A stretch of DNA of 64,000 bases, from the NCBI RefSeq assembly GCF_900167465.1, contig NZ_FUWR01000013.1, forward strand, positions 16,288-80,287, in the 5' to 3' direction. Below are positions 25,667 to 28,069 of this stretch, one piece after another (positions within the stretch are counted from its first letter, which is position 1; each line of letters opens with the position of its first letter). The DNA comes from Trichlorobacter thiogenes. Lineage in GTDB: Bacteria > Desulfobacterota > Desulfuromonadia > Geobacterales > Pseudopelobacteraceae. The notes beneath the pieces were generated by a model that searched no databases, had not been told where the DNA came from, and saw only the letters and a list, made by a program, of their open reading frames with translations. Position numbers and translations under genes: made by a program.

Positions 25667-28069
25667 TTAACGGCCATGACACTTTTTGTATTTTGCACCA
25701 CTACCGCAGGGACACGGATCATTCCGCCCCGGCTTTTTCGTATTCCCTAGGGGCATGACGTTTTTCGGCTGGTTTAGATTCACCGCCCGAGTTGGTTGAG
25801 CCATTCGCGCGGCATCTTCGTAAATGTAGGCGTTTTCTTCCGTTCGTACCGCCGGTATGCGGACCACGAAAGATTGCGCCCGATGGTAGGTTCCATTGGG
25901 ACTAACCTCCGCCACGACGCCAATGACGTTAGAGGCTTTGACGGCTAATGCAGCTGCGCTGGCCTTGTCATTCACCTTGGTCCAGTCAATTTGGTAGTCG
26001 TGATGTTGAAGCCAAACGAAAAGCGGCTTACCGTCCCCGGATAGAGTAAAGTAACGGGCGGGATTCTGGTTCAGGGTTTGGCGAAGATCGGACAGGATCT
26101 TGGCCAGATTTTTCCGCCCTTCCTCTCCTAAATCACGGATATGGCTCTCCACTGAAAGCCACCCTCGAGCTCGGGTGGCGTCAAGTACTTCAAGCAGCTT
26201 CAGCACCTCTTCCGGGAAGTCCTGCGTCGGAAATGGCCTATTTTCCCAGTCTTCCCCCTCGAAGCTCCTGTCGACGATGTCGCACATGCCATCCCAGATG
26301 AGCATATTCGCTTTGCCATCCTTCAACTGATCGGCAATTTCCTGATCGAAGCGGTTCTTTTTCAGGTACGCCCCCAGATGGTCGAACTCATCGAAGAGAT
26401 GAGCCTGGCGCATTCCTGCCACGGCTTGCCGAACCTCCATGTAGTGAGCAAACGAGCCGGGTGTGGGCAGGAACCGCTTGAGTACGAACAGGTCATCAAT
26501 GGACAGCGAAACGAAGGCATGCTTGCCAAGGAGCGGCTCAACCTGCGGCAGTACCTTGCAGTATGCCGAAAAGGGCGAGAATGACTCGACTGTCAGTCCA
26601 ATCGGCACCATCACACGGTAGTCAGAGCGGCGGACACGGCCGCATTCTTCATACTTGCCGTCGATGAGGCGGTAGAGCGGCACTTCGTCCGCAGAATTCA
26701 GGTAGCTAAAAAAGCGCTCGCACTGCTTGTACGCCTTGAGTACCAAGTCTTGCACGGACTGGGCGTGGCGGCCGAAATCAAGCGCTGGCGACGCAATGGT
26801 AGCAGCGGCTCCTGCCTTGGCTTCAACCAGGAACAGTATGTCATCGATCAGGATAAGGGTGTCGTTCTCGGACCACTGCTTGCTTGCAGGATCCTTGTAG
26901 TAGACCTCCTGGAAAACTGTGGCGCCAGGAAGTTGGTCGGCTAGAATGTCGGCGAAGGCGGCTTCACTCATCGCCTTCTGCCGATTCTCAAAGGTCTTCT
27001 TGTACTCCTGCTTTCTCTGAAGAAGGTTGTAGAGAAGCGCACGATACCCCGCGTCGCGGGTGAAGCACGGGTCGATAGCGTAGTAGTCCGATCCAACCTG
27101 AATTAAGGGTTTCTTCCGGGCAGGTAGTGTCCGGTAGGGCGTCCCCGCAAAATCACCCGCAGCGAAAAACTCGGTTTCTTCTCCGCGACAGTACGCTAAG
27201 TCAGCCAGCAGCTTCGGCGGTAGCTTCGTGTGACAGCTCACGTTGGCGATACCGCCACGAAACATGTCATTAATCGCTTGCACTGCAGCTTGCGACTGTT
27301 CTGCATTGGCCGCAGCCCACGCCTCTATGACGCCTTCCAGAGGCTTATCCTGTGCTGCAGCAAAGGCCTGTGCTTCCTCAAACTGCTTACTCATTTCCAT
27401 GATCGCGTCGGCATACCCAGAACGTGTGGAGTTAGCCATTGCCTGGAAGCCTTCCGCGATATCGGCGGCTCCGACGCCGTACACCTCTATAAGGACATCA
27501 TTGTGAGGAGCCAGAACGTAGCGGTAGAACTCTTCTTCCAAAACTTGGTAGCGATTTCCGCGCAGCATGACCCAGGTAGATTTGGCGCGGAATTCAATGT
27601 CGGCCGTGTCGGGACCGAATACGCCGTCCTTGGTATCGGCGGACGTGGCCATGGCGAAAAACATGGCCAACTCTCGCAGTTTTCTGCCAAGTTCAAACAG
27701 CTCGGTGCACTGAGCTTCGTCGAATGCCATTTCCGGAGGAGCAGCATCTGACGCAAGAACCGCGTGTACGTACTCCAACAGGAACTGGTTCTCGTTGATC
27801 AGATCATCCGGGCCGTCCTCTTCGCGTTTCTCCTCGGTGGCGCTTTGGTCTGCCATCGCGTTCATCATGTACTGGGCATAGATGTAGCCGAGCAGATCAT
27901 GCGGAGGCATGGTGACAATTAGCTCGCGCATTCGAGCTGCAATCGCTTCCATTTCTTTCAACATGGAAGCCGCAGTTTCTTTTCTTTTTATATCGTCCAT
28001 AACCAACATATCCCCGATATTTCTGGGAGGAATTCGGGACACCCCTCGGTTTTTCACATGCCGATTCAA
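25667..28069 (-). CDS. large hypothetical protein with C-terminal SEC-C metal-binding motif; possible PD-(D/E)xK nuclease core
   Basis: C-terminus [20 protein letters not shown] (SEC-C). Mid-protein [16 protein letters not shown] resembles a D...ExK nuclease motif (inference). Start ambiguous (TTG 28069 or ATG 28009). GC about 52-55%. Confidence 0.55.
   Translation of the reverse strand: [800 protein letters not shown]

Follow-up and report, generated by a model that had tools for sequence, protein, structure and literature searches.

A family of predicted stand-alone NERD-like nucleases that end in a SecA-like zinc tail, carried in Trichlorobacter thiogenes as an unusually large integron-type cassette

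Introduction

ZwsA of Pseudomonas aeruginosa is a stand-alone NERD RNA endonuclease directed against RNA phages, and its catalytic residues are E535, D567, E580 and K582 (bioRxiv 10.64898/2026.04.06.716636). GAPS1 is a single-protein PD-(D/E)xK defence factor that is triggered by the phage capsid and in which D313 and K328 are essential (bioRxiv 10.1101/2023.03.28.534373), and Upx, a system of Gao et al. 2020 with the structure 9wuf, is triggered by the terminase and has an essential ExK motif (PMC13601566, PMC13099982). Here, we describe an unlisted family of predicted stand-alone NERD-like nucleases that carry a SecA-like zinc tail. Its member in Trichlorobacter thiogenes lies in a 64,000-nucleotide stretch of DNA (hereafter the window; assembly GCF_900167465.1, contig NZ_FUWR01000013.1, positions 16,288 to 80,287 of the forward strand), where the gene, referred to below as the SEC-C gene, probably occupies 25667-28000 of the minus strand and is the cargo of an unusually large integron-type cassette. 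Coordinates refer to the window unless a locus is named.

A SEC-C motif is also present in Rugutis, a 359-amino-acid (aa) antiphage protein of a Lactococcus plasmid, where it is N-terminal and no nuclease domain has been reported (PMC11381338). The SEC-C knuckle of SecA is a binding site for SecB and for the ribosome (bioRxiv 10.1101/613315). Phage defence genes have also been described as integron gene cassettes (bioRxiv 10.1101/2024.07.02.601719; PMC12614218).

Results

The SEC-C gene and its start site

The list of open reading frames (ORFs) of the window contains a minus-strand frame of 800 codons at 25667-28069 that opens with TTG, and both protein strings quoted in the original prediction were found in its translation. 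The length of 800 aa given there holds for the open frame; the protein itself is probably 777 aa long, starting at the ATG at 28000. We place the start at this ATG because nearly all homologues, as well as an identical database entry (WP_078790673.1, 'SEC-C motif-containing protein [Trichlorobacter thiogenes]', 100% identity, retrieved by a protein database search), are 777 aa long and begin with MDDIKRK, and because the upstream DNA conservation relative to other gene copies extends directly into this codon. The coding sequence thus would span 25667-28000 (minus strand; stop codon at 25667-25669), preceded by a 5' leader at 28001-28083 (minus strand) that, from DNA comparison, is conserved with gene copies without attC sites. 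A consensus scan of 25300-28400, the leader included, did not find a consensus sigma-70 promoter.

The frame is not a chance one, since it has many strong homologues. Among the candidates examined, 957 proteins were found at E ≤ 0.001, the best 120 of them all at E = 0, and when 1.84 billion cluster representatives were scanned exhaustively with HMMER, 370 clusters (50% identity) scored E ≤ 1e-30.

The central domain has the fold and the motif of a PD-(D/E)xK nuclease

We aligned 60 full-length homologues having 23-71% identity to the window protein, and this alignment was used for AlphaFold2 modelling. The model (mean pLDDT 91, pTM 0.88) consists of five parts: a helical N-terminal domain, a central alpha/beta domain, a C-terminal region, a disordered linker and a zinc knuckle. 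In the central, NERD-like domain (aa ~298-530; 26411-27109, minus strand), helix 331-352, strands 361-369, 376-385 and 388-395, helix 409-434 and strand 439-446 make up an alpha-beta-beta-beta-alpha-beta core. Of the classical motif series, helix 1 of this core carries the E, strand 2 the D, strand 3 the ExK and helix 2 the Q. P298, Y368, E378 and D380 are invariant among the 60 homologues, while E346, W376, E393, G397, Q426 and R429 are nearly so (E346, 59/60; D380, 60/60; E393, 59/60 plus one D; Q426, 59/60). The block that conservation delimits as the predicted catalytic motif covers aa 346-395 (26816-26965, minus strand), with Q426 and R429 just downstream. D380 lies 13 residues ahead of E393, and we assign this invariant residue, not the DD386/387 turn, as the predicted catalytic Asp.

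As the core fold and the conserved motif were both tested and both found, the window protein belongs to the PD-(D/E)xK (restriction-endonuclease-like) superfamily. The original prediction had suggested such a core and had named the lack of a nuclease fold together with unconserved D/E/K residues as grounds for abandoning it. The fold is present in the model, and E346, D380 and E393-x-K395 are conserved in 53-60 of the 60 homologues.

The N-terminal domain (aa 1-~270; 27191-28000, minus strand) is all-helical in the AlphaFold2 secondary structure, with pLDDT mostly >90, and W143, R147 and R150 are conserved in it. No informative fold match was found for aa 1-~270, and we propose that this domain is a sensor or regulatory module. 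The C-terminal region (aa 531-736; 25793-26410, minus strand) opens with the motif D537-E-x-D-H541-L-G-x-Y545 and continues with a helical bundle and a beta-beta-alpha-beta-beta-alpha subdomain; the latter gave weak endonuclease-like fold matches and has no conserved catalytic residues. We also noted a second strongly conserved cluster outside the classical nuclease motifs, comprising D502/D503, H519 and R524 (aa 502-524) and the D537-Y545 motif (aa 531-547; 26360-26410).

The C-terminal tail is a SEC-C motif and does not make the protein a SecA or YecA homologue

The last 19 residues alone match the Pfam model SEC-C PF02810 (38.6 bits against a cut-off of 20.4, E 9e-10), as was expected from the zinc-binding motif read earlier at this C-terminus. 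This tail (25670-25738, minus strand), defined by the Pfam match and the model, follows a low-confidence linker (aa 737-754). It was found in 57 of the 60 homologues, with C763, C765 and C774 nearly invariant. In the Protein Data Bank (PDB), it matches the metal-binding domain chains of SecA and YchJ, and these tails were the only matches in both the single-sequence and the profile searches. Scans against Pfam, NCBIfam, PHROGs and PADLOC matched nothing but the tail, apart from a faint GapS1 similarity (see below). The body of the protein has no match in Pfam, NCBIfam or PADLOC, consistent with the earlier statement that no well-known family was recognised; the PADLOC comparison had been suggested at that time. 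SEC-C tails also occur in the PADLOC models E2, E1-E2 and PDC-S12.

The window protein shares with SecA, YecA and YchJ (bioRxiv 10.1101/613315) the CxCxSGxKYKxC(H/C) zinc or iron knuckle located at the extreme C-terminus behind a flexible linker. However, this ~20-residue knuckle is all that they have in common, and the SecA ATPase, YecA UPF0149 and YchJ domains are absent from the window protein. By analogy to SecA, the tail may be a docking device. Homologues are widely labelled 'YecA family protein' or 'preprotein translocase subunit SecA' from this 20-residue tail alone, and these names are misleading. YecA family membership was rejected: the YecA-/YchJ-type models of NCBIfam match the last ~20-30 positions alone, with 23-36 bits against cut-offs of 140-158.

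The core is probably a divergent NERD-type domain and is distinct from the known defence nucleases

The core is NERD-like and in all likelihood a divergent NERD-type domain, although it falls below the Pfam threshold. We base this assignment on sub-threshold PF08378 matches among the homologues, on a Lactococcus homologue that is named NERD, and on a faint GapS1 similarity in the same region. PF08378 gave sub-threshold matches in 19 of the 60 homologues (best E 8.6e-4), and none for the window protein at E ≤ 1. The Lactococcus plasmid homologue, which bears the NCBI name 'NERD domain-containing protein', aligns over residues 16-561 (BLASTP E 6e-52) and has the motif AENDLLVLYDDTLFIVEVKAGS. This copy (locus L064, plasmid pUCCL637D, 5358-8718) is interrupted by IS30, and the part cut off carries the annotation 'SEC-C metal-binding domain-containing protein'; the uninterrupted protein therefore had the same architecture as the window protein. 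An AbiEii/AbiGii toxin gene lies near this split copy. The GapS1 profile (NF047931) matched residues 293-438 of the window protein with 11.2 bits (E 0.12; best E among the 60 homologues 0.0025). GapS1 membership was rejected on this score, as the curated cut-off is 320 bits.

ZwsA has a PD-(D/E)xK core with the same E...ExD...ExK series and the same 13-residue D-to-E spacing (D567/E580/K582 in ZwsA; D380/E393/K395 here), and it is likewise a single multi-domain protein encoded in genomic islands. On the other hand, Pfam detected the VHS, DUF647 and S4 domains of ZwsA neither in the window protein nor in its homologues, and ZwsA is a protein of ~80 kDa with catalytic residues near 535-582, compared to 87 kDa, a site at 346-395 and a SEC-C tail in the present case. 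With domains, size and motif positions all differing from its description, identity with ZwsA was rejected. A possible bridge to ZwsA through a 716-aa NERD protein encoded next to the E. coli homologue (described below) was also discarded, as that protein has no acidic or lysine residues at the ZwsA catalytic positions.

GapS1 resembles the window protein in combining a sensor and a PD-(D/E)xK effector in one protein, in the 15-residue distance from D to K (D313/K328 versus D380/K395) and in being horizontally mobile island cargo. It differs in its length of ~455 aa, in its C-terminal nuclease and in lacking a SEC-C tail, and the N- and C-terminal domains of the two are unrelated. Upx has ~1270 aa, a C-terminal nuclease, a second nuclease-like domain at the N-terminus and no SEC-C tail, and TM-scores were only 0.14-0.20 with structural similarity limited to ~216 residues. 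Membership in Upx was rejected, since no PADLOC Upx model matched and the structural similarity is local only. Rugutis is, like the proposed role of the window protein, a single-gene antiphage factor containing a SEC-C motif; its motif is at the opposite terminus and the two proteins are otherwise unrelated.

The SEC-C gene is a discrete mobile cassette

The reference pattern of an attC site is RYYYAAC, followed by an imperfect palindrome with bulged bases and GTTRRRY, downstream of an ORF and on the same strand. We observed three attC-like sites, all on the minus strand, that read on the coding strand as CCAAC-NAG, an imperfect hairpin with bulges in the 5' arm, seven bases and GTTG(R). The site closing the SEC-C cassette (CCCAAC...GTTGGCC; 25485-25557) is 88% identical to the third site (30139-30211), which forms the upstream border of the neighbouring cassette. 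Between them, at 28117-28192, is the site of the preceding AbiC-like cassette (CCCAAC...imperfect hairpin...GTTGAAT), and the SEC-C cassette starts after the G of its GTT core. When folded as single-stranded DNA, the coding strands of the sites were more stable than shuffled sequences (z -2.4 to -4.4). A purpose-written attC finder, run on both strands of the whole window, recovered all three sites together with three weaker matches. The stop codon of the AbiC-like ORF lies inside the site at 28117-28192, and stop codons within attC sites are common in cassettes.

The SEC-C gene is a discrete mobile cassette of 2632 bp (25491-28122, minus strand), because the same unit is present between different neighbours and its identity ends at the GTT cores of the attC sites. 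Metagenome contigs from groundwater and other sources (loci L010-L012) encode a member of the same 90% cluster, with a 1755-aa ORF on its upstream side and the gene of a peptidoglycan-binding protein on the downstream side. DNA identity between the window and L010 is 97-98% from ~25490 to 28120 and drops to 44-75% in the flanking 50-nt bins, and the GTT cores of the two bordering attC sites mark the points where the homology ends. If each attC is part of the cassette that precedes it, the attC sequences upstream of the gene should not be alike in the two arrays, and they do differ. The gene had been described earlier as cassette cargo next to Abi-like genes, and both parts of that description hold: attC sites flank it, and the adjacent cassette carries a PF16872 putAbiC gene. 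Its length of 2.63 kb is far above that of typical integron cassettes.

No Phage_integrase match was found among the 40 larger window ORFs scanned, and the sites therefore form, within the window, a CALIN-type cluster (attC sites lacking an integron integrase). As in the phage-defence cassettes of integrons, a single promoter-proximal ORF is followed by attC, one and the same cassette is found in more than one array, bordered at the G/TT core, and the neighbours comprise an Abi-like cassette and a toxin-antitoxin pair. Unlike those cassettes, most homologues of the gene elsewhere are not cassette-borne. A screen of 49 loci did not find a convincing attC site, the script having also missed the sites of L010 itself. 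A candidate in locus L055 was dismissed, as by eye it is a terminator-like hairpin.

In the L010 array (1-11325; also L011 and L012), attC-like sites follow a 161-aa ORF and the 1755-aa ORF, which has no Pfam match and would make an exceptionally large cassette. A LexA/ImuB-like pair is present at one end of this array.

Homologues are spread across Proteobacteria, mostly as solitary genes

Using a single-protein query and one genome per species, we found 46 loci in Alpha-, Beta- and Gammaproteobacteria with 54-87% protein identity, a set that covers the close clade only. Such identities in so distant hosts indicate recent horizontal spread. The family as a whole ranges across Proteobacteria and reaches Campylobacterota and Lactococcus. 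DNA similarity between distant copies ends at the ORF plus ~100 nt upstream, and one 97%-identical copy adjoins a transposase and has no attC site. Outside the cassettes, the gene is mostly solitary in islands, plasmids or integrative elements. An all-versus-all comparison of ORFs within 6 kb found no conserved partner gene, no neighbour family being present in more than 6 of 40 loci; the gene therefore probably works alone or with host factors.

A homologue with 77% nucleotide identity is carried by 7 of 5426 complete E. coli genomes. The E. coli homologue has the protein accession WP_226231179.1. In the two that were inspected, PSJ-14 and KFu022 (L066/L067, 7590-18181), it belongs to the cargo of an integrative element at yfgI, and in KFu022 the gene is split in two. 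Its neighbours in this element are HigA, a PIN protein, the 716-aa NERD protein mentioned above and two DUF262 proteins. The 716-aa protein shares the C-terminal half and the SEC-C tail with the window family (26% identity over 288 aa, E 8e-10) and not the N-terminus. In sequence, the two seem to share one conserved chassis of effector and tail, to which different front ends can be attached.

Neighbours associated with defence or mobility were observed at further loci: AAA_15 and UvrD (Gabija-like) in Rhizobium; an AAA_23 ATPase and a resolvase or integrase in B. pseudomallei; type I restriction-modification, DarT-Macro and SLFN on a metagenome contig around a 35%-identical relative; the Lit exclusion protein on an Aliarcobacter plasmid; and IS elements, hok and DinI on a conjugative plasmid of Photobacterium. 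We also scanned the 110 nearest neighbours at 29 loci with PADLOC models (E ≤ 1e-8). Strong matches among the 25 families listed, the top ones of 142, include PifA (twice, 1e-76), GajB (2e-174), type I and III methyltransferases (2e-254 and 3e-135), dCTPase (1e-168), AbiEi (2e-83), QatA, DpdH, mad3 and several PDC candidates.

Surroundings of the cassette in the window

The neighbouring cassette (28123-30138, minus strand) has a GC content of 0.36-0.41 against ~0.53, and it contains a 214-aa ORF (29362-30006) and the 353-aa putAbiC protein (28175-29236). Downstream, just beyond the last attC, is a hipB-hipA pair (24907-25254 and 23615-24904). The AT-rich region upstream of hipBA has a 60-nt imperfect inverted repeat (25254-25313/25370-25429) and many TATATAG-type palindromes, which are possibly HipB operators.

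The 12-mer ACTCCCCGTATT is present in exactly two copies in the window, at 28072-28083 and 25620-25631, flanking the ORF, and homology to the non-cassette copy L009 starts within the upstream one. As the border of a transposon-like unit it was rejected, being absent from loci L001-L008; moreover, 3 of 100 shuffles gave at least two matches.

Upstream of the cassettes is a GNAT gene, and a perfect 18+18-nt palindrome, TGAGCGGTTCACGCGCAC/GTGCGCGTGAACCGCTCA, lies between it and an SPFH gene (30691-30726). The encoded 856-aa SPFH/Band-7 protein (30750-33320) has five tandem repeats of 222 nt (74 aa) at 31903-33008, each 65-78% identical to the reference copy. A signalling cluster (14311-19564) on the housekeeping side of the island encodes an FHA-domain protein, a PP2C phosphatase, a PIN-domain protein and a CHASE2 Ser/Thr kinase.

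Discussion

From the genomic context of the family, we infer a role in defence: the SEC-C gene probably encodes a one-protein sensor-plus-nuclease factor against phages or mobile elements, comparable to GAPS1, Upx and ZwsA. Its non-catalytic domains would keep the nuclease inactive until a phage-derived cue binds. The PD-(D/E)xK site, predicted to be Mg2+-dependent, would then cut nucleic acid, either DNA or possibly RNA, and this cleavage would stop the infection or the cell. The SEC-C tail, a Cys3His knuckle on a flexible linker, might provide a docking or regulatory contact. In this proposal, the nuclease activity, the trigger, the substrate, the part played by the tail and the defence phenotype are all inferred.

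Several observations weigh against a defence role. The PADLOC (2023) models include none that covers the body of the protein, and the scan of neighbourhoods gives qualitative support, being made without a matched background control and with models that include generic domains. Some copies of the gene lie among housekeeping genes. No homologue was present in 50,697 phage records, and thus no link to counter-defence emerged. No paper was found on the family or its accessions. Position 395 is K in 53, R in six and G in one of the 60 homologues, and what the above scheme says about trigger, substrate and SEC-C tail function is guesswork.

The same nuclease might instead serve mobile elements, in competition or exclusion, in addiction, in recombination or repair of incoming DNA, or as a selfish gene that spreads itself. 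We consider this unlikely, even though protein identities of 73-87%, seen at most loci in different bacterial classes, indicate that the gene spread very recently, and copies are found on conjugative plasmids, in an integrative element, in an integron cassette and beside IS elements, resolvases and integrases. The gene has no conserved partner, be it a transposase, an integrase or another gene, the homology of distant copies ends at the ORF and ~100 nt without shared terminal repeats, and the neighbours are mostly defence genes, not genes of transfer or replication. The direct repeat ACTCCCCGTATT on either side of the ORF would suit such an element, but it is weakly significant and missing from L001-L008. 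That the PD-(D/E)xK domain does not cut, and the protein is a nucleic-acid-binding or scaffolding regulator like other restriction-fold proteins without catalysis, is very improbable. Such a role would agree with the replacement of K395 in seven of 60 members and with the C-terminal subdomain, whose weak endonuclease-like matches come without conserved catalytic residues; however, 53-60 of 60 sequences, with identities as low as 23%, have retained the E...D...ExK...Q set, which one would not expect of a dead site. The least credible explanation is a factor of the YecA/SecA type that acts in protein export or chaperoning, and as a family assignment it is effectively refuted. The motif of the SecA metal-binding domain at the C-terminus is genuine and the source annotations carry those names, but similarity to SecA, YecA and YchJ spans the last ~20-35 residues alone (~53-55 in full-length SecA chains), whereas the remaining ~740 residues lack any such match and include the nuclease fold. 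Furthermore, the gene is accessory and patchy: of 5426 complete E. coli genomes, 7 have it, and one of these copies is split.

Returning to the defence factor, a more specific proposal, speculative and in our estimate quite unlikely, is that the SEC-C tail acts as a functional address. The NERD core, the shared C-terminal domain and the tail, combined with swappable N-termini, would be parked at ribosomes or chaperones to sample nascent or unfolded phage proteins, and recognition would fire the nuclease. This proposal fits the E. coli island, where two proteins with unrelated N-termini and homologous C-terminal halves and tails are encoded side by side, as well as the recurrence of SEC-C tails in other PADLOC defence models.

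Thousands of database entries bear the name 'YecA family protein' or 'preprotein translocase subunit SecA' in error. The copies of the gene with and without an attC site form a useful pair for studying how large genes become integron cassettes, and native members in E. coli and P. aeruginosa make the family easy to test. Candidate single-gene defence nucleases are no longer surprising; what is noteworthy here is the recurrent SEC-C tail, the chassis with variable front ends and the paired cassette and non-cassette copies. If the proposed role holds, the 370 clusters would constitute an unlisted single-gene defence family, would join an expanding class of sensor-nuclease immune factors made of one protein, and would offer a first handle on the recurrence of SecA-type zinc tails on defence proteins.

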